Source of the DNA: Bacteroidota bacterium
GTDB lineage: Bacteria > Bacteroidota > Ignavibacteria > Tepidaquicellales > Tepidaquicellaceae
Direction of reading: 5' to 3'
DNA length: 55,993 bases
Assembly: GCA_023429265.1 (NCBI GenBank)
Contig: JAEYVS010000103.1
Coordinates: forward strand, 1 to 55,993
The notes under the pieces: model-generated
Databases searched by the model: none
Told to the model about the DNA's origin: nothing
Seen by the model: the letters and a program-made list of their open reading frames with translations, nothing else
In this document: positions 4,806 to 52,861 of the stretch, one piece after another
Layout of the letters: each line of letters starts with the position of its first letter
Numbering within the stretch: position 1 is the stretch's first letter
Position numbers and translations under genes: made by a program

Positions 4806-5357
4806 ATGAGAAAGATAACCACATACATAGGGCTGGTATTGATGATATTCGGAATGGCATTCAACGTAAATGCATTTCAGAAAGGAAAAGATACGACTAA
4901 AACCAAAAAAGATACTACTCTTACAAAAGATACCGGTACCACCGGCGGACAAACCCAGCTGCAGATAGATACTGTATTGAATCAATTAGGAATAGACACA
5001 CAGCAAACATTAATAGATACTACTCAGCTGGTCGATTCAACATTGATAGAGCCGGTGACAGAGAATAAGCTAACCAACTTTAAGTTATTTTTATACATAA
5101 TACTCAGCTTGCTTGGTATGGCATTGTTTTATTATCTGTTCGTTCAGATGATGTTTAAGACATTCCACAAGACAAGGGGTACACGTCAATCAATGTTATT
5201 ATCGTGGAATTTATTTTTTGCTGTGAGTATTGTATGGCTGTTTATCATATGGGGAATCGTAGCAGAATTCTGGACATCGGCGGCATTTATGGTTACAATG
5301 ATCTTTTTATTCATCGTATCTCTTGTAATGCTGATAATTTCAGTAAAAAGTAAATAA
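4806..5357 (+). CDS. Hypothetical membrane protein
   Basis: 183 aa. N-terminal hydrophobic signal/anchor, a Thr/Lys/Gln-rich segment, then 3-4 hydrophobic helices. Lies 5 nt after the accC stop. No family recognised. Confidence 0.55.
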   Translation: MRKITTYIGLVLMIFGMAFNVNAFQKGKDTTKTKKDTTLTKDTGTTGGQTQLQIDTVLNQLGIDTQQTLIDTTQLVDSTLIEPVTENKLTNFKLFLYIILSLLGMALFYYLFVQMMFKTFHKTRGTRQSMLLSWNLFFAVSIVWLFIIWGIVAEFWTSAAFMVTMIFLFIVSLVMLIISVKSK

Positions 5358-5434: not shown

Positions 5435-6232
5435 ATGGACAAACAGTATGCACTCATATTAGGGGCATCGAGCGGTTTTGGAAAAGCACTGGCATTAGCT
5501 TTAGCAAAAGACGGAGTAAACATAATCGGACTTCACCTCGACAGATCATCAACCATGCCCGGTGTAGAGGAATTAATTTCCGATATTAAAGCAGCCGGTG
5601 TAGAGGCGCATTTTTACAATATGAATGCTGCTGACGAGGGCAAACGCAAGCAAACCATAGATACCATTAAAAATGAGATTTTCAAAGGTGATGCTAACTG
5701 TACGATAAAAGTATTAGTACATTCTCTTGCCTTCGGTACATTAATGAATTTCATCGATGAAGACCCTGCCAAACAGATCACGAAGAGACAGATAGACATG
5801 ACCCTGGACGTTATGGCATGCAGCCTTGTTTACTGGACGCAGGATGTTGTTTCAAACGGATTGATGAAAAAGGGCGGTAAAGTCTATGCAATGACCTCAT
5901 CAGGGGGTACCAGGCAGATAAAATATTACGGCGCAGTATCCGCGGCCAAAGCATGTTTGGATTCATTCGTCAGGCAGCTTGCAATGGAACTTGCACCGAA
6001 AGGGATATCCGTAAATGCATTAAAAGCAGGGGTAACGAATACACCGGCTTTGCAAAGGATACCGGAAGCAAATAAAATTATAGACAATGCTCTTCAAAGA
6101 AACCCGATGCACATACTGACCGACCCTAAGGACGTAGCCGATTTTGTAATAGACAATTACAAATTGGAATCCCACTGGATGACAGGAAACATCATAGGCA
6201 TAGACGGGGGCGAAAGCATAGTGGAAATTTAA
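5435..6232 (+). CDS. SDR-family oxidoreductase, enoyl-ACP reductase (FabL)-like
   Basis: 265 aa. N-terminal GASSGFGKA dinucleotide-binding motif. Active-site spacing is Y-x6-K (YGAVSAAK), as in FabI/FabL, rather than the classical YxxxK. Adjacent to accBC. Confidence 0.6.
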   Translation: MDKQYALILGASSGFGKALALALAKDGVNIIGLHLDRSSTMPGVEELISDIKAAGVEAHFYNMNAADEGKRKQTIDTIKNEIFKGDANCTIKVLVHSLAFGTLMNFIDEDPAKQITKRQIDMTLDVMACSLVYWTQDVVSNGLMKKGGKVYAMTSSGGTRQIKYYGAVSAAKACLDSFVRQLAMELAPKGISVNALKAGVTNTPALQRIPEANKIIDNALQRNPMHILTDPKDVADFVIDNYKLESHWMTGNIIGIDGGESIVEI

Positions 6233-6283: not shown

Positions 6284-9200
6284 ATGGCAGATTACCCACA
6301 AAATAATAAGATGTTCTCGCCTGAGAATACAATAAACCTTTCAGCAGAAGATAAAGGAAGTTTAGAGCTAAAGACCCAGGAATTCATGCCCACCATCATA
6401 ATCGGGCTTGGGGGAACGGGAAAGGAAGTAATGCTCAGACTCAGAAGGCAATTCGTTGAAAAATACGGATCGCTGAATGACTTCCCCATTATTTCATATC
6501 TATATATAGATACAGACAATGCTCCCACGGAAGAAGGCGGACTTGCCCGTGAGCAGGATCTGCTGATTAATGACATAGAATTTCAGCCAGCAGAAAAGAT
6601 TTTCAATCCCGTTAACCCATCGGATTACATCCATAAAATTCACGATGTACCGCACGTAAAACAGTGGCTCAGTACTACAGGTGAGATTGGGAAGCTCGGA
6701 ACAATGAATACAGGCGCGGGACAGATAAGACCTGCGGCAAGACTTGCGCTGTTTCATAATTACGATGAAATAGTCAGCAAGCTCACCTCGGCTAAATCTA
6801 GAATAACAGATTCAAAATCAATAAATCTCGTCAAGGATAAGCATAAGATAAAGAACGTAAACACGGACAAGATCAATGTTTATGTGATAACCTCAGTCAG
6901 CGGCGGTACGGGCTCGGGGATGTTTGTGGATTTTGGATTTATTATCAGGAATATATTTAAAAATACGGCTGTATCATCTTGTTACGTGGTGCTCCCGCAG
7001 ATATTCCAGGGATACGGCAAGGAGAGAGTTTACGCTAACGGGTATGCCGCTCTGAAAGAGCTGGAGTTTTATAATTTGAAGAACGTATTCGATGTGACGT
7101 GGAAGAAGAACTTCCCTCTCACATTTCAGCCGGGTGTATACGATGATGTTTACTTAATAGACGGTGAAAACGCAAAAAACCTTTCACTCTCGGATATCAG
7201 CAATAAAGATATTTACAAGATGTTGTCCGATTCGATATTCCAGGACTTCTCAAATTCGGATTTCGCAAATTACAAGCGCGGAGTACGAGTCAACTTAGTT
7301 CAATATAAACAAAGACTTTGGCCTGATGATAATACCGTAACGGAAAACACATATTCCAGGAAATATTCAACTCTCGGTCAAGCGACTATTTCCATACCTA
7401 TAGACAGGATAACACTTTCGTGTGCATATAAGCTGTGCGAGGATATAATTAATTATTACCTGACATTTGCAGACGGGTCACAGAGCGATGTGGACAATTA
7501 TTTGATGGATGAGTTCCTCCCATCTCTGGGAATCTTAGAGTCTAACCAGAAGCATCAATTACTCGAATCGCTGTACAGCATTGGAGAGAAATCATCAATT
7601 CCAGCAAAAATTAAGGGATTCCTGAATGCGCTGCAAAATGAGCTTATCACCGGGAAACGCGGAAACAACTGGTCTGCATTCATACTGGGTGAGATAAAGA
7701 AGTTCGATACGAATTTCAAAGATGACAATGACGTGCTAAGGCAGGGAATGTATTATTCACAGATCCACTCAAACCGAACGAATATCCTTAATAACGCTGT
7801 GGGCGACAGGGAAAGAAACATTATCGGTGGACTTGAGAAGCAGATCAACTCACTTGTTAACGATTCCACACGCGGTGTATTTTATTCTATAAACGTGCTC
7901 AGAAGGCTTCAATTCATCCTGTCGAATGAGAACTTCAATTACATACCGAAATTCGATAAGGATATTAAGGACCTCCAGGTAGTTATATCGAGGCTTGATT
8001 CGGAGGTTAAGAGACGCTTCCAGGATCTGCGCGAAGACGAAGCAATGTCAAAGATAAACGTACTCAAGAAAACCGCGATGTCGGGGACACTTGAGAAGCT
8101 TATAAAGACACTGGATGAGTATTATAACGCGCTCGTAAAGATAAGAGCGAGGTATTATGCTAAGGAAATCGCACAGAGGATTCTCAATACGGTAGAAAAA
8201 GGCGTTAAGACCGATTCCGGAAAGATACAATTCACGGGCTTAATATCAGATCTCGAAAAATTGACGGGAAATCTAGGTTTATTGAAGGAGAATTTCGAGA
8301 GAAAATATAAATACTTTGCTCAAAAGCAGAATACCAGCTTTAATCTGCAGATATATGAGCCGGAAGATATTAAGAATGAGTATTACATAAGGTACATTGG
8401 AACGGGACAGAATGCACAGGATAATATTAAATCCATCGCATACAAGCTTCTAAAGGAGCTTGGAGCGTCAGACGTGACTGATATTGTGAATATCCTCAAA
8501 GACAGTGACGCAAAAGTTGTTGAAGAGAAAATGATTGCTTTTGCGAAGAGGCATTTCGAAAAGATCAAAGAAGATTATAACATTACGGAGATATTGTTTG
8601 AGAAAGACCCGATCAGGAGTGAATCCAAGATAAGAGGTATGTTCCTTCAGGCATTCCCGTGGCTTCGCGTTAAAGATACCCCGGGCAGCTTTAAGCTCGA
8701 TGATTCGGCAAAGAAATATTACATAGGTATCAGGACCAATACTCCCTCATTCAGAAATTTCCAGAACCTGATCCGATCGATTGCAGGTTCATCGGTGGAA
8801 TTCAAAGATTCCGCGGATAACTCTTCGATTACGTTTTACACAGAGTGGGCCGGATTCCCGTTATTTTATTCCTACACGATCGCGGAAGAAATGAAGCCGT
8901 ACTATAAGCAGCTGACTCAAAACCAGAATATCGACCTTCACATCGACAGGAACCATTATCTTTATACTGATATCATTCCCCTATCGACGGACGAAAGAAA
9001 GCGGCTGGATGAATCTTACAGAGCATACCTGATGGGATTAATTTTTGGTGTATTTGACATTGTCTCGGAAATAGATACTGAGACGGGTAAACCGAAATCA
9101 ATCTATAAATATACATTGCAGGAAGGGATCACCGTCAGGAGAGTAGAACAGCTTGGGAACGAGAGAAGATTGATTAACAGGTTATTTGAAGAGCAGGGAC

Positions 9201-9715
9201 GAGATTCACTGAGATATAAGATACTAAAGGACGCGGAAAATATTCAGAGCCAGATGTATATGAGGAATTACCTGGCAGAAATGCTTGTGATTTTCGAATA
9301 TTACTATGAGAATATCTATAACTTACAGGAAATAGAAGTATCGGGTGATGCAAAGATAAAAGTTGAGACATATGAATACACGATTGCTAAGAATCTTGCG
9401 CGGGAAATAGAGAGCAAAGTTCATCCTAATGAAAAAGAAGCATTCATTCAAAGGGTAATGGAGCTAAAGAATAATATGGATTCATTTTCAGAATTATGCG
9501 GAGATGGTATGAAGCGAGTTCTTAAGGTAAAGGAAATATTGCTTGACAAAGAGCAGGATCTCGATGGCAATCTTGTAACGGAAAAAGTAAACCAAACTGA
9601 TACAAACGGCAATATTAACCTTAACAGGCTAAAAGAAATGAAATTAGCTCTGGATGAGGGATTGATAACGGAAGAAGAATACAACAATGCCAAGAAGGAG
9701 TTCTTAAAAATATAA
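6284..9715 (+). CDS. Giant tubulin/FtsZ-superfamily GTPase-like protein with C-terminal SHOCT-like motif
   Basis: 1143 aa. IIIGLGGTGKE (aa 38-48), GAGQIRPAARLA (aa 144-155) and tubulin-signature-like SVSGGTGSGMF (aa 204-214). About 800 aa of uncharacterised, helical-looking sequence follows. The terminus LKEMKLALDEGLITEEEYNNAKKEFLKI resembles the SHOCT domain. GGAG lies 7 nt upstream of the ATG. Confidence 0.7.
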   Translation: MADYPQNNKMFSPENTINLSAEDKGSLELKTQEFMPTIIIGLGGTGKEVMLRLRRQFVEKYGSLNDFPIISYLYIDTDNAPTEEGGLAREQDLLINDIEFQPAEKIFNPVNPSDYIHKIHDVPHVKQWLSTTGEIGKLGTMNTGAGQIRPAARLALFHNYDEIVSKLTSAKSRITDSKSINLVKDKHKIKNVNTDKINVYVITSVSGGTGSGMFVDFGFIIRNIFKNTAVSSCYVVLPQIFQGYGKERVYANGYAALKELEFYNLKNVFDVTWKKNFPLTFQPGVYDDVYLIDGENAKNLSLSDISNKDIYKMLSDSIFQDFSNSDFANYKRGVRVNLVQYKQRLWPDDNTVTENTYSRKYSTLGQATISIPIDRITLSCAYKLCEDIINYYLTFADGSQSDVDNYLMDEFLPSLGILESNQKHQLLESLYSIGEKSSIPAKIKGFLNALQNELITGKRGNNWSAFILGEIKKFDTNFKDDNDVLRQGMYYSQIHSNRTNILNNAVGDRERNIIGGLEKQINSLVNDSTRGVFYSINVLRRLQFILSNENFNYIPKFDKDIKDLQVVISRLDSEVKRRFQDLREDEAMSKINVLKKTAMSGTLEKLIKTLDEYYNALVKIRARYYAKEIAQRILNTVEKGVKTDSGKIQFTGLISDLEKLTGNLGLLKENFERKYKYFAQKQNTSFNLQIYEPEDIKNEYYIRYIGTGQNAQDNIKSIAYKLLKELGASDVTDIVNILKDSDAKVVEEKMIAFAKRHFEKIKEDYNITEILFEKDPIRSESKIRGMFLQAFPWLRVKDTPGSFKLDDSAKKYYIGIRTNTPSFRNFQNLIRSIAGSSVEFKDSADNSSITFYTEWAGFPLFYSYTIAEEMKPYYKQLTQNQNIDLHIDRNHYLYTDIIPLSTDERKRLDESYRAYLMGLIFGVFDIVSEIDTETGKPKSIYKYTLQEGITVRRVEQLGNERRLINRLFEEQGRDSLRYKILKDAENIQSQMYMRNYLAEMLVIFEYYYENIYNLQEIEVSGDAKIKVETYEYTIAKNLAREIESKVHPNEKEAFIQRVMELKNNMDSFSELCGDGMKRVLKVKEILLDKEQDLDGNLVTEKVNQTDTNGNINLNRLKEMKLALDEGLITEEEYNNAKKEFLKI

Positions 9716-9716
9716 T

Positions 9717-10037
9717 ATGCCGACTTACGATTACAAATGCGGGAATTGCGGGCACCAACTGGAGGTCTTTCAATCAATCAAAGCTGATGCCATCACAAAA
9801 TGTCCCGAATGCGGAGAAGACAAGCTTAAGAGATTGATAGGTGGAGGGGCAGGTTTGATATTTAAAGGAAGCGGCTTTTATTTAACCGATTATAAAAATG
9901 CGGGCACGAATTCCGGTAAATCTTCTTCGACATCAAGCAATGAGAAAACTGCCTCAACAGAAGCAAAATCTCCCGATACAACCACCAAAACCGAATCCAA
10001 AAGCCCCGACACAAAACCGGCAGACAAAGCAGATTAA
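9717..10037 (+). CDS. FmdB-family (CxxC_CxxC_SSSS) zinc-ribbon protein
   Basis: 106 aa. MPTYDYKCGNCGHQLEVFQS...KCPECGEDKLKRL, followed by a Ser/Thr/Lys-rich tail with the repeat KSPDT. The start is 1 nt after the stop of the 1143-aa gene. Confidence 0.8.
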   Translation: MPTYDYKCGNCGHQLEVFQSIKADAITKCPECGEDKLKRLIGGGAGLIFKGSGFYLTDYKNAGTNSGKSSSTSSNEKTASTEAKSPDTTTKTESKSPDTKPADKAD

Positions 10038-10121: not shown

Positions 10122-11498
10122 ATGAAGAAAATTATTCTATTTATTTTCGGATTAGTTATTCTGGGCTCATCTTTATCACAAGCTCAAAATAATTTACCGG
10201 ACAATTTTTATTTTAAAAAGCTTAGTAATGGACTTGATGTACTTGTCATTCAGGATAAGACAGTTCCCCTTGCGACAATAGAGATTGCAGTAAGAAATGG
10301 AGCTTATACAGAAAGTCCGGAATTTGACGGTCTCTCGCATTTGTATGAGCATATGTTCTTCAAAGCAAATAAGGACATTCCCTCACAGGAAGAGTTTCTT
10401 AAAAGAACCCAGGAACTCGGCGCAATCTGGAACGGCACAACAAGCACAGAAAGAGTAAATTATTTCATAACAATAGGTACGCAGCACATAAGAGACGGAT
10501 TGAAATTCATGAATTCCGCGATAAGATATCCCCTCTTCATTGAACAGGAAATGAAGAATGAAAATCCTGTTGTGGATGGCGAATTCCAGAGAGCCGAATC
10601 AAATCCTGCATTCTTTTTATTCAATGATATGAACAGGTATATGTGGGGCGACCTTTACAGCCGGAAAAACGTGATTGGTGACCACGACATCATCTTAACA
10701 GCGACACCTGAAAAAATGAGAATATTACAGGAAAAATATTATTATCCAAATAATTCAATAATTGTAATTGGTGGTGATGTAGACCCATATAAAACATTTG
10801 ATGAAGTAGAGCAAATATTCGGAGACTGGCAGTCTTCTGATTTTGATCCATTTGAAAGATATCCAATTCCTGAGTTTGCTCCATTAAAGGAATCGAAGAA
10901 TTTCATTACAATCAATGAAAATGCTAAAAATCCAATGATAATGATTGACTGGCATGGACCTGATACAAGGACTGACATCCCGGCAACATATGCTGCGGAC
11001 GTTTTTTCATTCATTGTAAATCAAACAACATCAGAATTACAAAAGGATCTTATTGATGGTGGATTGGCTAACACAGTTAATGTTGGCTATCAAACTCAAA
11101 AATACGTAGGACCGATAAGCATATTCATAATCCCAAAACCTGACAAAATAAATGAAGTTCTCGCTAAAATAAATGAGCACATAGAAAGATGGGATTCGGA
11201 TGACTATTTTACCGAAGAACAGATCGAGACAGCTAAAACCCAGCTGGCAATAGGAGAAGCATATGGGGAAGAGAATATTACAAATTTCGTTCATACAGTG
11301 ACATTCTGGTGGGCATCGGCATCAATTGATTATTATACGGGCTACCTTGAAAATCTAAATAAAGTTACCCGTGAAGACATGAAGAATTATGTAAGAAAAT
11401 ATATTAAAGGAAAACCAAGAATCACAGGTATCCTTCTTTCTCCTCAAATGAAAGAATCGTTTACTTTAGAAAATTTTGAAACAGCAGGAAGCCATTAA
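10122..11498 (+). CDS. M16-family (pitrilysin-like) zinc peptidase, active subunit, secreted
   Basis: 458 aa. Signal peptide and inverted zinc motif HxxEH (HLYEH). Confidence 0.8.
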   Translation: MKKIILFIFGLVILGSSLSQAQNNLPDNFYFKKLSNGLDVLVIQDKTVPLATIEIAVRNGAYTESPEFDGLSHLYEHMFFKANKDIPSQEEFLKRTQELGAIWNGTTSTERVNYFITIGTQHIRDGLKFMNSAIRYPLFIEQEMKNENPVVDGEFQRAESNPAFFLFNDMNRYMWGDLYSRKNVIGDHDIILTATPEKMRILQEKYYYPNNSIIVIGGDVDPYKTFDEVEQIFGDWQSSDFDPFERYPIPEFAPLKESKNFITINENAKNPMIMIDWHGPDTRTDIPATYAADVFSFIVNQTTSELQKDLIDGGLANTVNVGYQTQKYVGPISIFIIPKPDKINEVLAKINEHIERWDSDDYFTEEQIETAKTQLAIGEAYGEENITNFVHTVTFWWASASIDYYTGYLENLNKVTREDMKNYVRKYIKGKPRITGILLSPQMKESFTLENFETAGSH

Positions 11499-11509
11499 AA
11501 CTCAAAAAT

Positions 11510-12841
11510 ATGAAGAAAATTTTTAAATTTATCGTAATAATTCCGGTCTTTATTGCAGTGTTTGGTATATCCAATAGTTTTGCCCAGGGAGATGAATTTG
11601 AAGTAGATGGAATTAAAGTCATTCTTAAACCCTCAATAAAAGAAGTTATAAGTGTAAGATTATTTATCGATGGAGGGACTGCAAATTACCCAAAAGAAAA
11701 GGAAGGCATTGAAGCTCTTACACTCAGCCTGGCTGTTTCAGGTGGTACTCAATCAATGTCGAAACATGAGTTTAACAATGAGCTCGAAAAGATCGGAACC
11801 AGCATCAACAGTAATACCGGTTATGATTTTGGAGACATCAGCATGATCTGCGTAAAAGATTACTGGGATAAATCCTGGAACCTATTCTCAGATGCAATAA
11901 TGAATCCCGCATTTGATTCCAAAGAATTCCAGATTATTAAAGACCAATATGTAGCCGGCGCTCAACAAAATGAATCCAATCCTGACGCACATATTCTAAA
12001 TATGTCTATGGCACACGTATTTGAAGGTAAAAATTATTCTAAGATACCTAATGGAACTGTTCAAAGCTTACAGGCTCTCTCAGATAGTGAAGTAATAGCT
12101 TATTACAAAGAAATAATGGTTAAAAAGCGGGTATTCCTGGTAGTTGTGGGCGATGTGAGCAAAGAAGATATTACATCAAAGATCAGAAGCTCATTAGGGC
12201 GTTTACCGGAAGGTACAGCCGCTTCAACTGACGAAAAGGTTTTAATCAATGAGGCGAGTGAAGTAATTGAGGACAGGGACATTGAGACTAATTATATCAG
12301 AGGAGTATTTTCTGCGCCTAAAATGTCAGATAAAGACGCTATTCCAATGAGACTTGCTATGGCTATCTTAGGAGATCGTTACTTTGTTGAATTAAGGACA
12401 AAAAGGAGCCTCTCATATGCTCCAAGCGCATTCTACTCTACGGGGGCAATCAGAAATCCATATAATGTACTTTATATCTCAACCCAAAAACCCAAGGAAT
12501 CGATGGAGGTAATGGTCGACATTGTACAAAATGTAAAAAATGATGGATTTACTGAGGAAGAGTTAAAGAATAAGAAAGAAATGTTTGCCACACAATATTA
12601 TATGAACCTTATGACTAATGCCGCTCAAACTCAGAATTTAGGTACTTACGAGCTGATATCCGACTGGACTTTAAGTGAAGACATAAATGAAATGCTCCAG
12701 AACGTAACTCTTGAAGATATAAATAATATATTCGATAAGTATTCCAATATTATTAAATGGTCATATCTTGGCGATGGTACAGCGGTAAGCAAAGAAGATT
12801 TTAAGCAGGTTAAAAAGAAAGAAAACAATGAAGCTCAATAA
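11510..12841 (+). CDS. M16-family peptidase, non-catalytic partner
   Basis: 443 aa. Signal peptide and similar length to its neighbour, but no HxxEH motif. Paired arrangement with the preceding gene. Confidence 0.65.
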   Translation: MKKIFKFIVIIPVFIAVFGISNSFAQGDEFEVDGIKVILKPSIKEVISVRLFIDGGTANYPKEKEGIEALTLSLAVSGGTQSMSKHEFNNELEKIGTSINSNTGYDFGDISMICVKDYWDKSWNLFSDAIMNPAFDSKEFQIIKDQYVAGAQQNESNPDAHILNMSMAHVFEGKNYSKIPNGTVQSLQALSDSEVIAYYKEIMVKKRVFLVVVGDVSKEDITSKIRSSLGRLPEGTAASTDEKVLINEASEVIEDRDIETNYIRGVFSAPKMSDKDAIPMRLAMAILGDRYFVELRTKRSLSYAPSAFYSTGAIRNPYNVLYISTQKPKESMEVMVDIVQNVKNDGFTEEELKNKKEMFATQYYMNLMTNAAQTQNLGTYELISDWTLSEDINEMLQNVTLEDINNIFDKYSNIIKWSYLGDGTAVSKEDFKQVKKKENNEAQ

Positions 12842-12880
12842 GCTATAAGATTCTCATCGGCTAAGGGTGAGTGCAATAAG

Positions 12881-12919
12881 GAGCGATTGGATGCGAAAGC
12901 AGAAAATCGCTCTTTTTTT
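12881..12919 (+). terminator. Rho-independent terminator after the M16 pair
   Basis: GAGCGATT-16 nt loop-AATCGCTC followed by TTTTTTT. The T-run overlaps the lptB stop codon on the opposite strand. Confidence 0.65.
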
Positions 12920-13673
12920 AATCGAAATTCTTTTTATTTTCCATATACCGCTCCAGGCTGAAACTTTCCCCTAAATATAATTTTCTCACCAGTTCATCAT
13001 TAGCCAGTTCTACTGCTGTACCTGAACGGAATATTTTGCCTTCAATAAGAATATACGCCCTATCCACTATCGAAAGTGTTTCGTGGACATTATGATCGGT
13101 TATCAGGATGCCTATTTTTCGCTTTTTAAGGCTCACCACAATCTTCATTATGTCTTCGGCAGCTATTGGGTCGATTCCTGCAAAAGGCTCGTCCAGAAGC
13201 ATGAATTTAGGGTCTGAAGCAAGAGCCCTGGCAATTTCAGTACGTCTTCTTTCACCCCCGGATAATGAATAACCCATTGTATCCCGTATCTTTTCCAGGC
13301 TAAAATCATTTATCAGCTGGTCACATTTTTCTTCTACTTCCTCCCTGTCCAGCCTCATAAACTGTAAGACAGCTTTAATATTCTGCGTAACGGTTAATTT
13401 TCGGAAAATTGACGGTTCCTGAGGCAGGTATCCTATCCCGTGCTGTGCCCTTTTATACATTGGCATCTTGGTTATATACTCACCATCCAGTTCGATCTCT
13501 CCGCTATTTGGTTTAACCAATCCGCATATCATATAAAAGCTAGTTGTCTTCCCTGCACCATTTGGCCCCAGTAATCCAACAACTTCTCCCTGTTCCAGAC
13601 TTACGGAAACATCATCTACAACTGTTCGCTTCTTGTATTGCTTAACAAGATTATATGTTTTAAGCTTACTCAT
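12918..13673 (-). CDS. lptB: LPS export ABC transporter ATP-binding protein
   Basis: 251 aa. Walker [10 protein letters not shown], signature LSGGERRR, Walker [10 protein letters not shown], and the LptB-typical length and N-terminus. Confidence 0.85.
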
Positions 13674-13680
13674 TTATGCA

Positions 13681-13707
13681 AAAAAACTAACGGGATTCCG
13701 TTAGTTT
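13681..13707 (-). terminator. Rho-independent terminator after pdxJ
   Basis: On the minus strand: AAACTAACGG-aatc-CCGTTAGTTT followed by TTTTTT. Confidence 0.7.
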
Positions 13708-13731
13708 AATGTAACTCCTTGTATTATGGGT

Positions 13732-14451
13732 TTAGTATGCAATTCTTAAGAGCTCCACCATATCTCTTACTGCTTTGTCAAGCCCTGTAAAAATAGCTCT
13801 GGATATAATGGAATGTCCAATGCTTACTTCGCCAATTTCCTTTATTGTCAGCATAGGTAATATATTTACATAATTCAGACCGTGTCCTGCTGTTACCATC
13901 AATCCCATCTCTGAAGCCATTCTTGCAACAACGGCTATCTTTGTCAATTCGTCAATTTTCTGGCGTTCTGATTTTGCGTTAGCATAATCTCCGGTATGTA
14001 TCTCTATAGTATCAGCGCTTAGCTCAACAGCGAAATCAATATTTTCAGGTACAGGATCAATGAATAAGCTGACAGGGATGTTATGTTCTTTTAAAGTACC
14101 AACTGTCTTTCTTATCTTTTCTAAATCTTTCGAAAGTACAAGTCCACCTTCTGTAGTCACTTCCTTTCTATTTTCAGGTACCAGCATAGCAATGTCGGGC
14201 TTGACCTCAAGTGCTATTTTTAACATTTCATCAGTAGCTGCCATTTCAAGCTCAAATTTGGTCTGTACTGTCTCTCTTAGAAGTCTAACGTCTCTATCAG
14301 TGATATGGCGTCTATCTTCCCTCAAATGGCATATAATTGCTTCAGCACCTGCTAATTCGCAAATTGATGCCCCTGCAACGGGATCGGGTTCACTTCCACC
14401 CCGGGCATTCCGTATAGTTGCAATATGATCTATATTAACTGCTAATCTCAT
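13732..14451 (-). CDS. pdxJ: Pyridoxine 5'-phosphate synthase
   Basis: 239 aa. N-terminus LAVNIDHIATIRNARGG, typical of PdxJ. Confidence 0.9.
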   Translation of the reverse strand: MRLAVNIDHIATIRNARGGSEPDPVAGASICELAGAEAIICHLREDRRHITDRDVRLLRETVQTKFELEMAATDEMLKIALEVKPDIAMLVPENRKEVTTEGGLVLSKDLEKIRKTVGTLKEHNIPVSLFIDPVPENIDFAVELSADTIEIHTGDYANAKSERQKIDELTKIAVVARMASEMGLMVTAGHGLNYVNILPMLTIKEIGEVSIGHSIISRAIFTGLDKAVRDMVELLRIAY

Positions 14452-18706: not shown

Positions 18707-21700
18707 TTAAAAGTCGGCTCTTTCTTGCCCGGTAAATATGGCAAGCTTAATTATTTTCTGTCCAATACCCGGAGCATCAATAAGTGCAATATACATACCT
18801 GAAGCTACCGGAACATCTTCAAACGTTCTGAGATTCCATTGCTGATCAGAAACCGTATTATTCTTTTCTATCTTCCTGACAAGATCACCATTGAGTGTAT
18901 ATATTTTAATAGTACATACCTCCGGTAATCTTCTGAAAGTTATGAATCTGTTTGCACTGCTGGATTCAAGAACGTTAAATCCTAAGTAAGGATTAGGTAC
19001 AGCTCTTATCTTTTCCATATCACCTCTGGTAACAGCGACTTCAGTGCTGACAGTAGTACCCTGGATATTGAAGTCATAGTATAAAGGATATCCGGGAGTA
19101 ACATTAGGTCTTGTAGTATAATATGGATAAATAGAAAATACGTCACCTACACTATACGTAGCACCCGGCGCGATAAGCTTTGGCGCCCAGACATACATTA
19201 TGTCAGTTTGCCCTTGCTGAAGGAAAAGATTCTTTGATGTGTAGAATGGATCCGGATTTGGATTATAATCTGATCTAAAGAAATATGTGATCAGCTTTCC
19301 ACCTAAACTATCAGCAGAAGGTTCCCATCCTGCAGGAGCAGGGTTTATATCGTTTGATACTACAAAAGCAACATTTATTTGTCGCCTCTGAGCAGTGCTA
19401 TCTGTTGGATCTACTTCATATGCCCTGAATGGAACCTCAACAAAATCCTGATATAAATACCAGTTATCCTGTCCCACTGTCGAAGTATCAAGGTAGCGGT
19501 ATGCCATTTGACCGGCACCACCTAATCCTGTAAACTCAATCTCAACATTTCTAAGTTCAGTTGAAGATACGAGTGAACCCAGACCTGTAAATGTTGTTTG
19601 AGTTGGCCAGGACAGATTCATTAATTGCGATTGCCATGGTCTATCCGCCTGTCTTACATATTTACTTCCTTCGAGATATTTATTCCCCGGAGGATTGTAA
19701 CTGAATCCATATTGTCTTGATTGATTTGAAGCAGGATTCTGAATTGAATCGCGTATTACACCTGTTCTGGTAATTCTATTAACTTTAAACTGAATTCCGT
19801 CAAAATTATATGAACCTACAGAATTGTTAAGTGCGATATTTTGAGCTAAAGGACCAAATGCACCACCATCAACAGATTTCAAAATATTATATGTTGTGTC
19901 GGCATTATATTGTACTCTATAAGATGCATTTGTTAAAGCATTTGCATCAAGAATGATCGGAGCCAGACCCAAATCTCTGCGATTTGTGTTTAAAGTATCC
20001 CCTGTGTTGTAATATGTTTGAGTACCTGCTAAAGTAGCAGTTGGTCTAACAGTAATCACAGAAGAGGATAAAGGCGAGAAGTTAGCTTTTAATCCTCTTG
20101 GAGCATTTGGACTGTATCCATAAGCTATTATTAAATATTTGTATTCCTGACCATAAATTAAAGCAGCATTTCCGTTATATTCACCAGGATAGTTTGTTTG
20201 AGTCACCCTAAAGTTTCTCATTAGCCCGCTATTTGGAAAACCTGAAGGCTGGCTATATGTGTAAGGAGGTACTACAGGGAAATAACCATATTGTAACTGG
20301 TTATTGACATTGAAGCCCATACTAATACTATCCTGAATAATTCCTACTGTATCTTGAATATCAAATATTGCCAATAGAGTCAAATCATCATTTATCGAAG
20401 CTGGATCGTAAAAGTTTGGCAATGAATTAGCAGATTTTCTAATTTCATAAATTTGATAACCCTGGAACTTATAAATACTTGAGTCTTGTGGACCGGCAAA
20501 AACTGTATCCAGGAACTGGTAGCTTTCTGCATTATTCTGCCATGCAAAGTTAATTGCTACTTCACCGTTTTCATTTAACTGCTCATAACTGACAGTTGAA
20601 ATTGGTGTTGGAGGAGGAGGAATAACATTGAAGTCTGCATCAAATAGTTTTTGAGCAGTTTCATCCATTCTCTTTAAAAGAGTTACAGAATTTAGGTTAT
20701 TGCTTCCTCTTGCAACAAACTGAGCTAATACAACTTCCTGAGTATCACCGGGGTTCATTGTAAACTGAAATGAACCGGAATTGAAGATGAATCTTCTATC
20801 ACCACCCGGACTCGGGTCTACTGTACCTGTTGTATCGCCACCACAGTTATTTATTCTACCATCAGCTTCAGCCCAGTTGGTATCACTGGTCGTGTTAGCT
20901 TCCGGATCTCCCGGGTAGCAAAACACTGTTTTTCTTGGTGGGCTGAATGCAGGATTTAACCAGGACGTACCATCACTTTTTAGTCCCTGTAAATATCTGT
21001 ATGACTGCTCGGGACTATCAGGATCCTGTTCACAAACTGCCTGACCGCTTCCCGGATTTGTAAAATACACAAAGGAAGTTAACCCTAAAGTATCACCTGT
21101 AACAGAATTAATAGGGCTTCGGAAAAAATCCATACCTGAAGCAGGAGGATTTGAACCATAAGTAATTCCTGTTCCTGTTCCGTCAGTATTTGAAGAATTA
21201 AAGCAATAAGCCATATTTAGAGCCGGATCACAACCGATCCAGTCATCAGTTGCATCACCAAGGTCAGGATCCACAACAATACCAAAAAATGTACTGTCCC
21301 ATGCAGAAGTATTCTTGTTTATGATCTTGAAACTCAAAAACTGCATATCCTCAATACCTGAAACATTATATGCCCACGCAGTTAAATGCATTTCAGCATT
21401 CATCGGAGCAGTTCCACCACCAAATCCTTCACTGGAATTATGCTCATCAACAAATCCATCTGTTAAGCAAACAAATATTGTTTCTGAAGCATCTCTAACT
21501 CCGGGAAGGTCAGTACCAGGATCGTATGTCCCATTATTATTGATATCTACATAAGGAGCACCAAATGGAACCATATCTCCCCAGTTTGCATAATCAGGAT
21601 TGTTATTGGCATTATCACCTACTTTAACACTGTAAAGCTTAAATCTGGCATCTGTTATGGGAACTCCATTTTCTACATATCCCGGAGCCCATTCACCTGA

Positions 21701-22048
21701 ATATGACGCAGCAACCATACGAAGGTCACCTTCAACCTTTCCTGCAATTGTAAGACCTGCTGTAAAGATTGCATATTTTCCGGTACCTTTTGGCCACTCA
21801 AAACCGGGAAAGTTATTCGTATTAATATCCTGATCAAATATACCTTTATTCCATATCTGAGCAGCGATGTTGTTTGCATCAAGCGTATCAGTATTTGGAG
21901 TGACGGCGTCTATATTGTCCGTCAGGCTCCCATAATACGGGGTAAACCCGTTATCCAGACCAACAATTCTTACTCTGGGCTTTGCTTCAAGCAATGTTGC
22001 TCCCAGGAAAGTTGTAAGCAGGATTATTATTAAAATTTTTATTTTCAT
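18707..22048 (-). CDS. Large secreted protein of unknown function with a T9SS-sorting-domain-like C-terminus
   Basis: 1113 aa. Signal peptide and Asn/Gly/Thr/Pro-rich beta-type sequence. The C-terminal segment VPNPY...ITFRRLP..CTIKIYTLNGDLVRKIE...ASGMYIALIDAPGIGQKIIKLAI resembles a T9SS type A/FlgD-Ig-like domain and is followed by 9 extra residues (FTGQERADF). Confidence 0.6.
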   Translation of the reverse strand: MKIKILIIILLTTFLGATLLEAKPRVRIVGLDNGFTPYYGSLTDNIDAVTPNTDTLDANNIAAQIWNKGIFDQDINTNNFPGFEWPKGTGKYAIFTAGLTIAGKVEGDLRMVAASYSGEWAPGYVENGVPITDARFKLYSVKVGDNANNNPDYANWGDMVPFGAPYVDINNNGTYDPGTDLPGVRDASETIFVCLTDGFVDEHNSSEGFGGGTAPMNAEMHLTAWAYNVSGIEDMQFLSFKIINKNTSAWDSTFFGIVVDPDLGDATDDWIGCDPALNMAYCFNSSNTDGTGTGITYGSNPPASGMDFFRSPINSVTGDTLGLTSFVYFTNPGSGQAVCEQDPDSPEQSYRYLQGLKSDGTSWLNPAFSPPRKTVFCYPGDPEANTTSDTNWAEADGRINNCGGDTTGTVDPSPGGDRRFIFNSGSFQFTMNPGDTQEVVLAQFVARGSNNLNSVTLLKRMDETAQKLFDADFNVIPPPPTPISTVSYEQLNENGEVAINFAWQNNAESYQFLDTVFAGPQDSSIYKFQGYQIYEIRKSANSLPNFYDPASINDDLTLLAIFDIQDTVGIIQDSISMGFNVNNQLQYGYFPVVPPYTYSQPSGFPNSGLMRNFRVTQTNYPGEYNGNAALIYGQEYKYLIIAYGYSPNAPRGLKANFSPLSSSVITVRPTATLAGTQTYYNTGDTLNTNRRDLGLAPIILDANALTNASYRVQYNADTTYNILKSVDGGAFGPLAQNIALNNSVGSYNFDGIQFKVNRITRTGVIRDSIQNPASNQSRQYGFSYNPPGNKYLEGSKYVRQADRPWQSQLMNLSWPTQTTFTGLGSLVSSTELRNVEIEFTGLGGAGQMAYRYLDTSTVGQDNWYLYQDFVEVPFRAYEVDPTDSTAQRRQINVAFVVSNDINPAPAGWEPSADSLGGKLITYFFRSDYNPNPDPFYTSKNLFLQQGQTDIMYVWAPKLIAPGATYSVGDVFSIYPYYTTRPNVTPGYPLYYDFNIQGTTVSTEVAVTRGDMEKIRAVPNPYLGFNVLESSSANRFITFRRLPEVCTIKIYTLNGDLVRKIEKNNTVSDQQWNLRTFEDVPVASGMYIALIDAPGIGQKIIKLAIFTGQERADF

Positions 22049-26916: not shown

Positions 26917-27110
26917 TTTTTTCCCTTTGTTTTAATTATAAAATATATTGTAAAGTAATTGTAAACTTTAAAAACAATATAATACTATTTCAAAATCTTG
27001 TCAATATAGATATTCATAGGCTAAATATTGGGTTATTATGACTTAAGGCCTGTATTCATAGTCAAAGACAACAATTTTGCATTGCTATCCTATACGTTTA
27101 CCTACATTAC

Positions 27111-27147
27111 AAAAAAACCGGGTAAAAGTAGATAACTAATACCCGGT
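27111..27147 (-). terminator. Rho-independent terminator after the 613-aa BNR gene
   Basis: On the minus strand: ACCGGGTA-15 nt-TACCCGGT followed by TTTTTT. Confidence 0.6.
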
Positions 27148-27168
27148 GTTATAGAATCTGTAATCAAA

Positions 27169-29010: not shown

Positions 29011-29104
29011 AATTTAATTTTAATGGTTATGTAATCTAACGTAATATAATTTAAAGAATTAAGCTTTTCAATATAGATTAGCTTTTTAATAGCAATAATG
29101 CAGA

Positions 29105-47596: not shown

Positions 47597-47848
47597 TCAT
47601 TTTACCAGTACCATCCTTTTGGTTTCGATGAAGTTTTCGGATTCGAGCTTATAGAAGTATACTCCGCTGGGAAGATTTATTCCGTTCCATTCATATTCGT
47701 AAGTGCCGGGATTTAATTTTTCATTAACTAGTGTTGCTACTTCCCGTCCAAGCATATCATACACCTTCAGCTTCGCGAGTGATTCTTTTGGGATGTCGAA
47801 TTTTATTTTTGTAGAGGGGTTGAATGGGTTTGGGTAGTTTTGGTGGAG
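47597..47848 (-). repeat. CTD-module repeat copy 1 (coding)
   Basis: About 250 bp that aligns without gaps to the copies at 49738, 51360, 52610 and 54676. Begins TCATTTTACCAGTACCATCC. Confidence 0.85.
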
Positions 47849-49741: not shown

Positions 49742-49989
49742 TTTACCAATACCATCCTTTTAGTTTCAATAAAGTTTTCAGATTCGAGCTTATAGAAATA
49801 TACTCCGCTTGGGAGGTTTACTCCGTTCCATTCGTATTCGTATGTGCCGGGATTTAATTTATCATTTACCAGCTCCGCCACTTCCCGTCCGAGCATATCA
49901 TAGATTTTCAATTTCACGAGTGATCCTTTTGGGATATCAAATTTTATTTTAGTGGAAGGGTTGAACGGGTTCGGGTAGTTTTGGGATAA
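49738..49989 (-). repeat. CTD-module repeat copy 2 (coding)
   Basis: Begins TCATTTTACCAATACCATCC and is colinear with the other four copies. Confidence 0.85.
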
Positions 49990-51363: not shown

Positions 51364-51611
51364 TTTACCAGTACCATTCTTTTAGTTTCGATGAAGTTTT
51401 CGGATTCGAGCTTATAGAAATATACTCCGCTGGGGAGGTTTATTCCGTTCCATTCGTATTCGTAGGTACCGGGGTTTAATTTTTCATTAACGAGTGTAGC
51501 TACTTCCCGACCGAGCATATCGTAAATTTTTAATTTCACTAGCGATCCTTTAGGGATGTCAAATTTAATTTTCGTGGACGGGTTGAATGGATTGGGATAG
51601 TTTTGATGAAG
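51360..51611 (-). repeat. CTD-module repeat copy 3 (coding)
   Basis: Begins TCATTTTACCAGTACCATTC and is colinear with the other four copies. Confidence 0.85.
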
Positions 51612-52613: not shown

Positions 52614-52861
52614 TTTACCAGTACCATCCTTTTAATTTCGATAAAATTTTCCGCTTCGATTTTATAAAAATAAACTCCGCTCGGTAGATTAATTCCATTC
52701 CATTCGTATTCGTAAGTACCGGGATTTAGTTTTTCATTTACGAGCGTAGCCACTTCCCGCCCGAGCATATCGTAAATTTTTAATTTCACGAACAAGCCCT
52801 TTGGTATGTCGAATTTTATTCTAGTTGAGGGATTGAATGGGTTTGGATAGTTTTGGTGGAG
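52610..52861 (-). repeat. CTD-module repeat copy 4 (coding)
   Basis: Begins TCATTTTACCAGTACCATCC and is colinear with the other four copies. Confidence 0.85.

Follow-up and report, generated by a model that had tools for sequence, protein, structure and literature searches.

The locus and its genes

The window, as we call the whole 55,993-nucleotide stretch of Ignavibacteria DNA that was analyzed, contains a run of plus-strand genes built around a giant tubulin-like protein. The tubulin-like gene (TUB, nt 6284 to 9715) encodes an FtsZl1-class protein of 1143 amino acids. It is followed by an FmdB-family zinc-ribbon gene (nt 9717 to 10037) whose 106-residue product matches Pfam and NCBIfam models above cutoff. 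The junction reads ...AAA ATA TAA T ATG..., leaving the single nucleotide between stop and start (TAA-T-ATG) that a preliminary description of this DNA had reported. Upstream lies TM183 (nt 4806 to 5357), encoding a protein with a signal peptide, a Thr/Gln-rich extracytoplasmic stretch, and three C-terminal transmembrane helices; its cytoplasmic loop, KTFHKTRGTRQS, is short and basic. Between TM183 and TUB sits a gene for an SDR-family oxidoreductase, FabL/FabG-like (nt 5435 to 6232). It matches Pfam adh_short_C2 at 7e-40 and falls below every NCBIfam cutoff, the best being FabL at 142 bits versus a cutoff of 328.

Within the tubulin/FtsZ superfamily, TUB belongs to the FtsZl1 branch (Pfam Tubulin_2): Tubulin_2 (PF13809) matches it at E=1e-69, covering profile positions 1 to 355 of 356, and PF00091 is also matched by 28 of 39 full-length, diverse family members. 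FtsZl1 was defined computationally by Makarova and Koonin in 2010 (PMC2875224), in a survey that sampled no Ignavibacteria, and in 2020 Kaur et al. recast systems of this type, in part, as conflict systems (PMC7159879). The system is therefore not undescribed, as had been suggested. The resemblance to Tubulin_2-type giants that lack an established function is borne out, both by the PF13809 match and by a literature search on FtsZl1 that found no experimental function or data for any protein of the family.

The GTPase domain

The nucleotide-binding domain, which gives the Tubulin_2 match, occupies residues 38 to 389 (nt 6395 to 7450, plus strand). The three N-terminal motifs lie exactly where they were first placed: IIIGLGGTGKE (nt 6395 to 6427, residues 38 to 48), GAGQIRPAARLA (nt 6713 to 6748, residues 144 to 155), and GGTGSG (nt 6902 to 6919, residues 207 to 212). 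In terms of tubulin loops, these regions hold a T1 loop, GLGGTG (residues 41 to 46), a T3-like GAGQIR (residues 144 to 149), and the T4 signature SGGTGSG (residues 205 to 211); an insert specific to the TUB family spans residues ~76 to 148. Residues invariant across the family include G41, G43, G44, G46, D76, T77, D78, G144, R149, G207 to G210, D216, N252, E259, and R332, and the nucleotide-binding loops of TUB are intact. The T4-T5 block also aligns to Escherichia coli FtsZ, as a weak match (E=0.02).

The AlphaFold (AF2) model of TUB (pLDDT 86.6, pTM 0.73) gave 168 Foldseek matches at E<=1e-3, and all 50 listed belong to the tubulin superfamily. CetZ2 comes first (4b45_A, E=8e-6, TM-score 0.50), CetZ1 (4b46) scores 0.52, and tubulins, gamma-tubulin, and TubZ (2xka) are also among the matches. 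Profile and structure searches thus agree that the N-terminal region has the tubulin/FtsZ fold, and the initial reading of a giant superfamily GTPase stands. The archaeal CetZ proteins, which act in cell shape (4b45, 4b46, 3zid), are the best structural match to the N-terminal ~360 residues, at E=8e-6 to 2e-5 with target-normalized TM-scores of 0.41 to 0.52. However, sequence identity is merely 12 to 15%, the Pfam families differ, and no gene context is shared; at ~330 to 360 residues with a canonical C-terminal domain, CetZ also lacks the ~700-residue extension of TUB.

The body and tail of TUB

What lies beyond the GTPase domain? TUB had been described as a GTPase fused to ~800 residues. Distant homologues (1050 to 1400 residues, 25 to 41% identity) align over TUB residues ~30 to 1080, so the body is conserved family-wide across phyla rather than a local fusion. 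As first noted, it has no recognizable motif: Pfam matched no family in the C-terminal ~700 residues of any of 40 diverse members, and neither PDB-sequence nor Foldseek searches matched the body to a solved fold. It was also called K/E/N-rich and probably helical. These three residues make up 24% of positions 390 to 1100 versus 20% of the N-terminal domain, and helices are indeed predicted at ~373 to 790, but residues 810 to 1090 are mixed alpha/beta.

The helical region (nt 7451 to 8683, plus strand; residues 390 to 800 by AF2 secondary structure) includes very long helices at 554 to 588, 595 to 637, and 653 to 679, which give the model a stalk-like or coiled-coil-like look. Searches matched it to apolipoprotein and designed helical bundles by composition only, and matches to SMC/Rad50 arms were not significant. 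Compared with one other locus (L004), the region has a pN of 0.067 versus a saturated pS of 0.87. The C-terminal alpha/beta region (nt 8684 to 9556, plus strand; residues 801 to 1091), confident in both AF2 runs, holds the best conserved family motifs outside the GTPase domain: FYTEWAGFPLFY (residues 851 to 862), Y874, DLHIDRN (residues 884 to 890, with H886 invariant), and G958. It had no match in Pfam, PDB sequences, or Foldseek.

The protein ends in a disordered linker (residues 1092 to 1112; pLDDT <50 over 1092 to 1108) and a SHOCT-like tail (residues 1113 to 1143), together nt 9557 to 9712 on the plus strand. AF2 predicts helices at 1113 to 1124 and 1130 to 1141, a two-helix hairpin containing most of LKEMKLALDEGLITEEEYNNAKKEFLKI (nt 9629 to 9712, plus strand; residues 1116 to 1143). 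The SHOCT profile scores 20.7 bits against the window protein, under the Pfam cutoff of 27 (E=3.5e-4), and matches 29 of 37 orthologues at E<=1e-3 (best, 2.7e-7), so a SHOCT-like end had been rightly recognized. In the diverse set, SHOCT matches are confined to Ignavibacteria members, and the tail is specific to this clade. The linker evolves quickly (pN 0.31 versus 0.07 to 0.10 in the body). The oligomerization role first attached to SHOCT is not an established one, and a test in the paper that introduced the domain gave it no support (PMC3581485); a later comparative study predicted that SHOCT is an inner-membrane anchor (PMC11237479).

Does TUB polymerize? Canonical head-to-tail filaments are uncertain because the C-terminal activation domain is not confirmed, and Makarova and Koonin likewise doubted them for FtsZl1 (PMC2875224). 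TUB could instead be a nonpolymerizing GTPase switch or chaperone-like regulator, a monomer or dimer whose nucleotide state controls the C-terminal body. The acidic T7 catalytic pair of FtsZ is not kept across the TUB family; in the T7/H8-like stretch DFSNSDFANYKR (residues 321 to 332), the window protein reads NSDFAN, with N at the place of FtsZ D212, and the family consensus retains only D321, K331, and R332. In addition, a ~420-residue helical region after S7/H9-like elements replaces the canonical C-terminal sheet, TM-scores against tubulins are merely 0.3 to 0.5, and chaperones (HSP70, GrpE, DnaJ-like) are partners in outgroup loci. Yet every tubulin-superfamily member characterized by 2010 polymerizes (PMC2875224), the expected T7/H8 intersubunit element coincides with R332, which is invariant, and with the near-invariant K331 and D321, and the long stalk-like helices, followed by a flexible linker and a terminal tail, recall architectures that tether polymers. 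We consider a pure switch unlikely, although it is the alternative to take most seriously.

Genomic setting

In Ignavibacteria the gene order is TM183, the SDR gene, TUB with its SHOCT tail, and the FmdB ribbon with its disordered tail. The trio of TM183, TUB, and ribbon sits in an efp-accB-accC operon, and its efp-accBC/lptB-pdxJ neighborhood recurs in every genome sampled, a synteny that is invariant over 28 reference genomes and the metagenome loci. TUB is 69 to 73% identical among these loci, as high as accC and lptB there, and its body has a pN of 0.07 to 0.10 versus a saturated pS of 0.86. The trio is vertically inherited under strong purifying selection. The SDR gene is found in every Ignavibacteria locus having DNA upstream of TUB, and no outgroup locus has it between the transmembrane and tubulin-like genes; it is a lineage-specific insert outside the conserved core. 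The M16 genes, a pair that one Ignavibacteria sublineage gained immediately downstream of the ribbon gene, are unrelated to the module.

The nearest relatives outside Ignavibacteria keep different company. They lie in clusters of DnaJ-like, GrpE, giant HSP70, TPR, beta-propeller, and vWA-like genes, in which RHS, trypsin, PP2C, or FGE-sulfatase genes also occur. The closest (P0122, 41% identity) lies among HSP70, vWA, and RHS genes, a combination typical of predicted conflict systems, and one outgroup locus adjoins cas3/cas5d. Kaur, Burroughs, Iyer, and Aravind describe such clusters as conflict systems (PMC7159879): the giant HSP70, GrpE-like, DnaJ-like, TPR, vWA-like, and PP2C genes are shared, and zinc ribbons at the N termini of partner proteins fit their component vocabulary. 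Is the Ignavibacteria locus, then, a reduced NTP-dependent anti-phage or anti-invader system with TUB as a threshold-setting assembly switch? Pfam searches of the window and of the inspected outgroup loci did not show the DO-GTPase/GAP1 pair that defines the systems of Kaur et al. Variable effector components and a GTPase partner are absent from the Ignavibacteria locus, PADLOC gave no matches, and no HSP70, vWA, or beta-propeller partner is present in the window, although these may be encoded elsewhere in the genome. The setting is an invariant one rather than a variable island, and TUB evolves as slowly as core genes. This reading is improbable and ranks below the switch.

Two conserved partners

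TM183 was missed in the preliminary description and is a third member of the module. An HMM built from Ignavibacteria orthologues only was searched against 4600 ORFs. Its best outside match (L109, E=8.9e-5) is an ORF that immediately precedes a distant tubulin-like gene, and all later matches likewise stand directly before the tubulin-like gene; in L108, 9 nt separate a TM183-family gene from the tubulin-like gene that follows it, which is 34% identical to TUB. An upstream ORF with at least two transmembrane segments in its last 120 residues occurs at 29 of 47 independent loci versus 17 of 466 in the background. TM183 thus corresponds to the gene that immediately precedes the tubulin-like gene elsewhere, and we propose it as a membrane partner.

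The downstream partner is an FmdB-type ribbon with a disordered Ser/Thr/Lys-rich tail, as originally described, scoring 65 bits with Zn_ribbon_8 (cutoff 34.4) and 69.3 with TIGR02605 (cutoff 31.3). Its N-terminal ~60 residues, with CxxC...CxxC and GLIFKGSGFYLTDYK, are near-invariant, and the tail evolves quickly (pN 0.12 and 0.37, respectively), a pattern that holds across 27 orthologous loci. In these 27 loci, which come from 26 reference genomes and the metagenome contig L033, −1 to 12 nt separate the TUB stop from the ribbon start, and the ribbon gene is kept in 27 of 27 Ignavibacteria reference-genome loci having DNA downstream. Elsewhere, TUB homologues of ~1320 to 1590 residues carry a C-terminal DZR fusion at ~1160 to 1290, the tubulin-like gene of L036 is followed after 9 nt by a ribbon gene, and other downstream ribbons form the N terminus of HSP70s or of transmembrane-plus-periplasmic proteins. 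In all, a ribbon is fused or downstream at 42 of 70 loci, including 26 of 46 nonredundant non-Ignavibacteria lineages, against a background of 2%. The linkage first noticed here thus recurs in unrelated lineages and is general. Because the ribbons fall into several Pfam families (FmdB, DZR, Zn_ribbon_1/3), they may recur by analogy rather than common descent.

Might the FmdB gene be an independent small regulator that merely follows TUB in a frozen syntenic block? Stand-alone FmdB-type ribbons are common (TIGR02605), and adjacency within Ignavibacteria is not independent evidence because the whole neighborhood is syntenic there, making it one evolutionary observation only. Against this, the short gaps persist despite the M16 insertion after the ribbon gene, and the ribbon recurs in lineages outside the clade; coincidence is very improbable.

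TUB therefore travels across many phyla with an upstream three-transmembrane-helix protein and a downstream or fused ribbon, and Ignavibacteria have the minimal version of this module. In the published literature searched, a trio of three-transmembrane protein, TUB, and N-terminal ribbon was not found described as a core.

Comparison with known systems

TUB resembles FtsZl1 in its full-length match to the family profile, its divergent GTPase domain, which has inserts between T1 and T4, its long helical or coiled-coil C-terminal part, and a canonical T6-H7 and C-terminal domain that are hard to recognize. FtsZl1 also occurs together with partner proteins that bind Zn or associate with membranes (supplement, PMC2875224), as TUB does. 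The Ignavibacteria form differs in having no adjoining vWA, OmpA-like, kinase, or P-loop GTPase gene, in its housekeeping operon and clade-specific SHOCT tail, and in an FmdB ribbon bearing only a disordered tail.

The FtsZ membrane tethers FtsA, ZipA, and SepF bind a C-terminal peptide behind a disordered linker. TUB has what may be an analogous layout (GTPase body, linker, short SHOCT end) and, by the same analogy, a dedicated membrane protein encoded alongside, but the tails and tethers are unrelated in sequence. TubZ/TubR and phage PhuZ share the superfamily fold (phage FtsZ/tubulin proteins are among the matches) and a small adaptor binding the C-terminal tail, which for TUB is proposed; the TUB adaptor is, however, a zinc ribbon rather than a winged-helix DNA binder. 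Superfamily membership and the TubZ match notwithstanding, a second cell division FtsZ or a TubZ-like DNA partition motor is the least credible reading, given three times the length of FtsZ, no FtsZ_C domain, no ftsA, ftsQ, mur, or other division/cell wall neighbors (all in line with the first judgment that this is not the division ftsZ), no TubR-like gene, plasmid, or phage context in a chromosomal housekeeping setting, and CetZ and tubulins as closest structural matches with low TM-scores.

A membrane-tethered assembly?

We favor, with a probability of roughly 0.55, an assembly that is tethered to the membrane, is regulated by GTP, and does housekeeping work; it would serve neither cell division nor defense. 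From the evidence above we infer GTP binding, polymerization, membrane localization, and ribbon-TUB contact. TUB would bind GTP and self-associate or switch conformation at the cytoplasmic face of the inner membrane, held there by the three-transmembrane protein and possibly also by the SHOCT tail. The zinc ribbon would dock on the C-terminal part of TUB and serve as the adaptor through which the assembly engages a client. Outside Ignavibacteria that client may be a giant HSP70 or else a transmembrane protein that carries a periplasmic domain; within the clade, the disordered tail alone would remain in its place, and the module would have become a housekeeping element that organizes the membrane or envelope.

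Identity of the tubulin-like protein

The 1143-codon open reading frame (ORF) at 6284 to 9715 on the plus strand encodes a protein, TUB, whose N terminus was taken in the preliminary description for a tubulin/FtsZ nucleotide-binding domain. The ORF, the motif coordinates, and the TAA-T-ATG junction with the next gene were all given exactly there, and the identity holds. Pfam Tubulin_2 (PF13809) covers amino acids (aa) 38 to 389 with an E value of 1e-69 (235.9 bits versus a cutoff of 27, profile positions 1 to 355 of 356) and is matched by 37/37 orthologs and 39/39 full-length diverse relatives as well. PF00091 matches TUB weakly, at the GGTGSG block (E = 0.0033), and finds 28 of the 39 full-length diverse family members. 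The T1 loop reads GLGGTG (aa 41 to 46) and the T4 signature SGGTGSG (aa 205 to 211), one substitution away from GGGTG[ST]G. The glycines of both loops are invariant among 118 diverse homologs, as are D76-T77-D78, G144, R149, D216, N252, E259, and R332. TUB is a member of the tubulin/FtsZ superfamily with its fold and nucleotide loops intact, and it belongs to the FtsZl1/Pfam Tubulin_2 family.

An AF2 model made with 37 close orthologs reached a pLDDT of 51.7; with a 118-sequence diverse alignment the values were 86.6 for pLDDT and 0.73 for pTM. Foldseek returned 168 PDB matches at E ≤ 1e-3, and the 50 listed all belong to the tubulin superfamily. The best among those listed is CetZ2 (4b45_A, E = 8e-6, 358 columns, TM 0.50), followed by CetZ1 (TM 0.52) and then by alpha-, beta-, and gamma-tubulins and TubZ; phage FtsZ and tubulin proteins match in a viral structure library. 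The order of elements in the model fits the tubulin plan: S1, T1, an insert, GAGQIR, S4, T4, H4, S5, H5, and S6, the insert (aa 76 to 148) being family specific and the GAGQIR T3-like. A helix-loop-helix at aa 306 to 345, with one long strand and then a helix predicted behind it, bears DFSNSDFANYKR, which resembles the NVDFAD of FtsZ with N329 where FtsZ has D212. Across the family this T7-like stretch keeps D321, F327, A328, K331, and R332 and shows no conservation of the FtsZ-like NxDxxD pair. The T7 assignment and a canonical C-terminal activation domain stay putative, a doubt that Makarova and Koonin had already raised; an hhalign alignment of the family profile with Escherichia coli FtsZ was confined to the T4-T5 block and did not extend to aa 306 to 345. 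Does such a protein polymerize at all? That TUB is a switch that does not polymerize is an unlikely alternative, with the unconserved NxDxxD pair in its favor.

Behind the GTPase domain, the model places a helical region (aa 390 to 800, helices of 27 to 43 residues), a mixed alpha/beta region (aa 801 to 1091), and, at the C-terminal end, a disordered linker and a two-helix tail. When 1.84 billion representative proteins were scanned with HMMER, 3737 of them emerged as relatives at E ≤ 1e-3, many being 1050 to 1400 aa long, 25 to 41% identical, and aligned across TUB residues ~30 to 1080. The distant ones come from Acidobacteriota (Pyrinomonadaceae, Blastocatellia, Bryobacteraceae), Thermoanaerobaculia, Eisenbacteria, and others. 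The ~700-aa region after the GTPase domain is the conserved body of the family. The preliminary description was right that these residues (~800 in its count) carry no known motif, with no Pfam or PDB match found, but what it saw as a fusion is not unique to this protein. No Pfam family was detected in the C-terminal ~700 aa of 40 diverse members; NCBIfam gave a lone below-cutoff match, at the tail (CcmI, 17 bits versus 29), and PDB sequence profiles (A1, A4) gave compositional helical matches only (apolipoprotein A-IV, designed bundles). Foldseek yielded nothing significant for this body: the matches of the pLDDT 86.6 model were dominated by the tubulin domain, and the pLDDT 51.7 model, used to bypass that domain, had no match below E = 0.1. 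Conservation outside the GTPase domain is strongest at FYxExAGxPxFY (aa 851 to 862), Y874, LHxDxN (H886 invariant), and G958. In the window, positions 8834 to 8953 (aa 851 to 890) encode FYTEWAGFPLFY and DLHIDRN, which hold the family-wide conserved E854, Y874, and H886. This best-conserved non-GTPase patch looks like a candidate functional site, binding or catalytic.

A housekeeping locus in Ignavibacteria

The exact TUB and ~700 clusters (90% identity) of full-length relatives are found in Ignavibacteria and Kapaibacteria-type MAGs, the best 120 matches being 67 to 89% identical across ~1130 aa. The surroundings of TUB in the window are unremarkable. Upstream of it lie gap (minus strand), efp, accB, accC, the membrane protein gene TM183, and a short-chain dehydrogenase-type (SDR) gene. 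Two M16 peptidase genes follow the zinc-ribbon gene that adjoins TUB, and then, on the other strand, come lptB, pdxJ, a CPBP protease gene, and YbbR. Elsewhere in the window are GWxTD, PorV-like, TonB-receptor, and T9SS-cargo genes; such genes are typical of the Fibrobacterota-Chlorobiota-Bacteroidota (FCB) group. Across 28 reference genomes the order efp-accB-accC-TM183-SDR-TUB-ribbon, with lptB-pdxJ-CPBP-YbbR convergent to it, is nearly invariant, and metagenome loci of the clade show a matching order. Ignavibacteria-type loci with broken synteny, which could part functional linkage from inheritance, were sought, and none was found.

TUB is 69 to 73% identical among these loci, on a level with accC and lptB and above efp, accB, and pdxJ. 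Compared with L004, the closest ortholog with available DNA, pN is 0.07 to 0.10 in the GTPase, helical, and C-terminal regions and pS is 0.86; pN and pS are given in place of dN/dS because synonymous sites are saturated even at this distance. The linker before the TUB tail (pN 0.31) and the tail of the ribbon protein (pN 0.37) evolve fast. The evolution of TUB in Ignavibacteria is core-gene-like.

Not every neighbor shares this history. The tandem insulinase-like M16 pair (10122 to 12841) occurs only in the window and L004 and is a recent insertion, as all other Ignavibacteria loci pass directly from the ribbon gene to lptB; its confinement to this sublineage rules the peptidases out as module members. 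Farther along, a 1112-aa ORF (18707 to 22048, minus strand) has no Pfam match at E ≤ 1e-4 and is apparently conserved, given an ORF of similar size at the same position in a metagenome contig, L033 (1161 aa, truncated where the locus stops). Clusters of paralogs of ~540 to 715 aa, with BNR/YCF48-like repeats and a Por_Secre_tail (T9SS), occupy 25087 to 30955 and 47597 to 54679 (minus strand), and genes for a PorV-like protein and for a TonB-dependent receptor are close by. In one long-read MAG (L026), accC, SDR, and the tubulin-like gene are apparently split by frameshifts, probably assembly errors rather than pseudogenes. A JGI contig (L046, Ga0079224_100048772) encodes proteins 98 to 100% identical to those of the window along accB-accC-TM183-SDR-TUB and is probably from the same organism or population.

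Relation to known systems

The preliminary description spoke of an undescribed system; the FtsZl1 family was in fact defined in 2010. Makarova and Koonin (PMC2875224) found it by profile searches, noted that the C terminus is a coiled coil and that neither T6-H7 nor the C-terminal domain can be recognized, and suggested a role in membrane remodeling. Santana-Molina et al. (2023) left the family aside, judging its divergence too great, and the literature searched yielded no experimental work on FtsZl1 proteins. NCBI labels such proteins "tubulin-like domain-containing protein." The family, then, is already known; the novelty lies in the minimal Ignavibacteria variant, embedded among housekeeping genes, and in a general three-protein core.

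How different is this variant? In the FtsZl1 operons known in 2010, a vWA gene was a neighbor in the majority, and OmpA-like, kinase, and P-loop GTPase genes were often present. The neighbors in the window, in contrast, are efp, accB, accC, TM183, SDR, the FmdB ribbon gene, two M16 genes, lptB, and pdxJ. Loci outside the Ignavibacteria clade (outgroup loci) additionally carry a giant HSP70 gene, in many cases accompanied by GrpE-like and DnaJ-like genes, as well as genes for a PQQ-like beta-propeller, TPR proteins, and a ~550-aa protein with repeated weak vWA matches; RHS, trypsin, PEGA, PP2C, and FGE-sulfatase are variable extras. In a single case, one Acidobacteriota genome (L032, positions 1 to 2805), type I cas3 and cas5d lie a few kilobases 5' of the tubulin-like cluster.

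Clusters of tubulin, HSP70, GTPase, and vWA genes have been reread as NTP-dependent conflict systems (Kaur et al. 2020, PMC7159879), in which a core pair of DO-GTPase and GAP1 is joined by variable effectors. Could the Ignavibacteria locus be such a system in reduced form? The variable extras of the outgroup loci are reminiscent of this arrangement. None of the outgroup partners (HSP70, GrpE-like, DnaJ-like, beta-propeller, vWA-like, and TPR proteins) or of those extras, however, was matched in the 56-kb window; neither operon nor window holds a P-loop GTPase, HSP70, or effector-like gene; and PADLOC defense models found no match. GAP1 was judged absent from the lack of an unexplained adjacent gene, not by profile. 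We regard a reduced conflict system as quite doubtful.

The zinc-ribbon partner and the SHOCT-like tail

The next gene (9717 to 10037, plus strand, 106 codons) encodes, as the preliminary description had recognized, an FmdB-family zinc ribbon, scoring above both the NCBIfam (TIGR02605, 69.3 bits, cutoff 31.3) and the Pfam (PF09723, 65 bits, cutoff 34.4, profile positions 1 to 41 of 41) cutoffs. The junction with TUB reads TAA-T-ATG, and in 27 orthologous loci the distance from TUB stop to ribbon start is −1 to 12 nucleotides (nt). The first ~60 residues of the ribbon protein are nearly invariant in these loci, and its Ser/Thr/Lys/Glu tail is variable, both in how long it is and in its sequence.

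Is the pairing peculiar to Ignavibacteria? In homologs of ~1320 to 1590 aa, a double zinc ribbon (PF12773) is fused directly behind the conserved body, followed by an acidic Pro-rich linker and a last CxxC...CxxC. The motif C..C-x(6-30)-C..C was counted in 86 nonorthologous loci, 70 of which have a complete 3' end: it falls inside the TUB homolog past residue 400 in 17 of the 70 and within 90 residues of the start of the following gene's product in a further 25, against a background of 33 of 1648 other ORFs. With the Ignavibacteria clade left out and the rest clustered at 70% identity, a ribbon is present in 26 of 46 lineages (11 fused, 15 downstream). The linkage that the preliminary description pointed to is general beyond Ignavibacteria, and a coincidental pairing of the two genes, for all the inherited synteny within that clade, is very improbable. 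Since the ribbons come from different Pfam families, they represent a recurrent architectural rule, common descent being unproven.

Downstream ribbons head proteins of several kinds: giant HSP70s (900 to 1040 aa), bitopic proteins with a transmembrane (TM) segment and a periplasmic domain (390 to 555 aa), small soluble proteins, and, in Ignavibacteria, a disordered tail only. The giant HSP70 proteins (~900 to 1040 aa; L034, 12365 to 15202, and L069, L073, L084, L088, L091, L099, and L116) open with a CxxC...CSWCG ribbon, behind which there are apparently Ig-like modules. Their genes lie directly 3' of the tubulin-like gene in several phyla; the Pfam HSP70 match was made in L034 only, the others being grouped by size and N-terminal ribbon. 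In the Acidobacteriota locus L036, the gene 9 nt 3' of the TUB homolog encodes a ribbon-TM-SPOR-like protein and the next a ribbon-TM-YARHG protein (12291 to 13809; periplasmic SPOR-like domain weak at 17.5 bits, YARHG at 49 bits), an architecture that suggests coupling of a cytoplasmic tubulin-like protein to the cell wall.

The end of TUB had been read as a SHOCT oligomerization motif. Two helices are predicted at aa 1113 to 1124 and 1130 to 1141 behind a disordered linker, and SHOCT (PF09851) is found at E ≤ 1e-3 in 29 of 37 orthologs (best 2.7e-7); TUB itself, at 20.7 bits, stays under the gathering score of 27, and its tail is best described as SHOCT-like. Among the orthologs and the diverse set, SHOCT is confined to the Ignavibacteria clade. 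As for oligomerization, in the founding SHOCT paper the authors' own assay gave it no support (PMC3581485). A comparative study published later predicts an anchoring role at the inner leaflet for SHOCT-like domains (PMC11237479).

A proposed membrane partner

The preliminary description was essentially right in its interpretation, but it missed a third partner, TM183 (4806 to 5357, plus strand), a 183-aa protein with three TM helices. TM183 shares its topology with the product of the gene directly 5' of TUB in all outgroup loci inspected: three TM helices close the chain, with a short basic loop on the cytoplasmic side. By hydropathy, such a gene is present in 29 of 47 independent loci, versus 17 of 466 background ORFs. 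A first hhalign comparison of TM183 with six outgroup TM proteins gave a probability of 6%. The case that TM183 has counterparts elsewhere rests on an HMM, built from Ignavibacteria orthologs alone and iterated over the 4600 ORFs of all loci, and on a bridging locus, L108. The best outside match was the ORF immediately 5' of TUB in L109 (E = 8.9e-5), and later iterations gained only ORFs sitting directly 5' of TUB. L108 has a TUB homolog only 34% identical to that of the window; 9 nt separate its gene from a TM183-family gene on the 5' side (pairwise E = 6e-7), and no SDR gene intervenes. The conserved core is the three-TM protein, TUB, and the ribbon protein.

The SDR gene (5435 to 6232, plus strand) is conserved in Ignavibacteria only and is an insert specific to them, as the outgroup loci inspected pair the TM gene directly with TUB. 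Its best score is to a FabL-like enoyl-ACP reductase (142 bits versus a cutoff of 328), with a weak second to the EF-P 5-aminopentanone reductase YmfI (88 bits versus 238). With efp and accBC just upstream, either role is conceivable, both scores being below cutoff.

Proposed role and significance

A role in division or partition is negligibly probable: for all its tubulin fold, TUB has no FtsZ_C domain and no fts or mur neighbors, is 1143 aa long against ~350 to 450 for FtsZ, and, with regard to TubZRC/PhuZ traits, has no DNA-binding Pfam domain among its neighbors and lies in a syntenic block of chromosomal housekeeping genes in 28 genomes.

What, then, might this machine do? In the mechanism that we consider most likely, TUB would self-assemble or switch under the control of GTP at the membrane's inner face, recruited by the three-TM protein and perhaps by its own SHOCT-like tail too. 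The ribbon would dock on the C-terminal part of TUB, where other lineages have it fused, and act as an adaptor for a client that in Ignavibacteria would be reduced to the disordered tail. The weakest step is a connection to membrane biogenesis, at which co-transcription with accBC and SDR hints.

A bolder and tentative reading, to which we give roughly one chance in five, is that the three-TM protein, giant GTPase, and ribbon adaptor form a minimal core ancestral to every long-type FtsZl1 system, an unrecognized transmembrane-coupled machine of the tubulin superfamily, domesticated in Ignavibacteria as an essential-like, membrane-organizing cytoskeletal element co-expressed with lipid-synthesis genes. 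If this bolder reading is true, TUB would represent a new class of bacterial cytoskeleton with an assembly chemistry unlike that of FtsZ and tubulin, K331/R332 replacing the acidic T7 pair and a ~420-aa helical insert perhaps interrupting the C-terminal domain as well.

Few branches of the tubulin/FtsZ superfamily are as divergent as FtsZl1, and its usual loci are hard to dissect because they are large and variable (HSP70, vWA, beta-propeller, TPR, effectors). The Ignavibacteria version, three conserved core-gene-like proteins, offers a tractable entry point and a minimal set with which to reconstitute GTP binding, filament formation, recruitment to the membrane by the three-TM protein or the SHOCT-like tail, and docking of the ribbon. 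The family-wide rule of a three-TM gene 5' and a ribbon fused or 3', heading HSP70s or proteins with periplasmic domains, leads to testable interaction hypotheses. Finally, the locus bears on the question of whether these are defense modules or cell-biological machinery: its fixation in a housekeeping operon argues for a use in normal physiology in at least one lineage.
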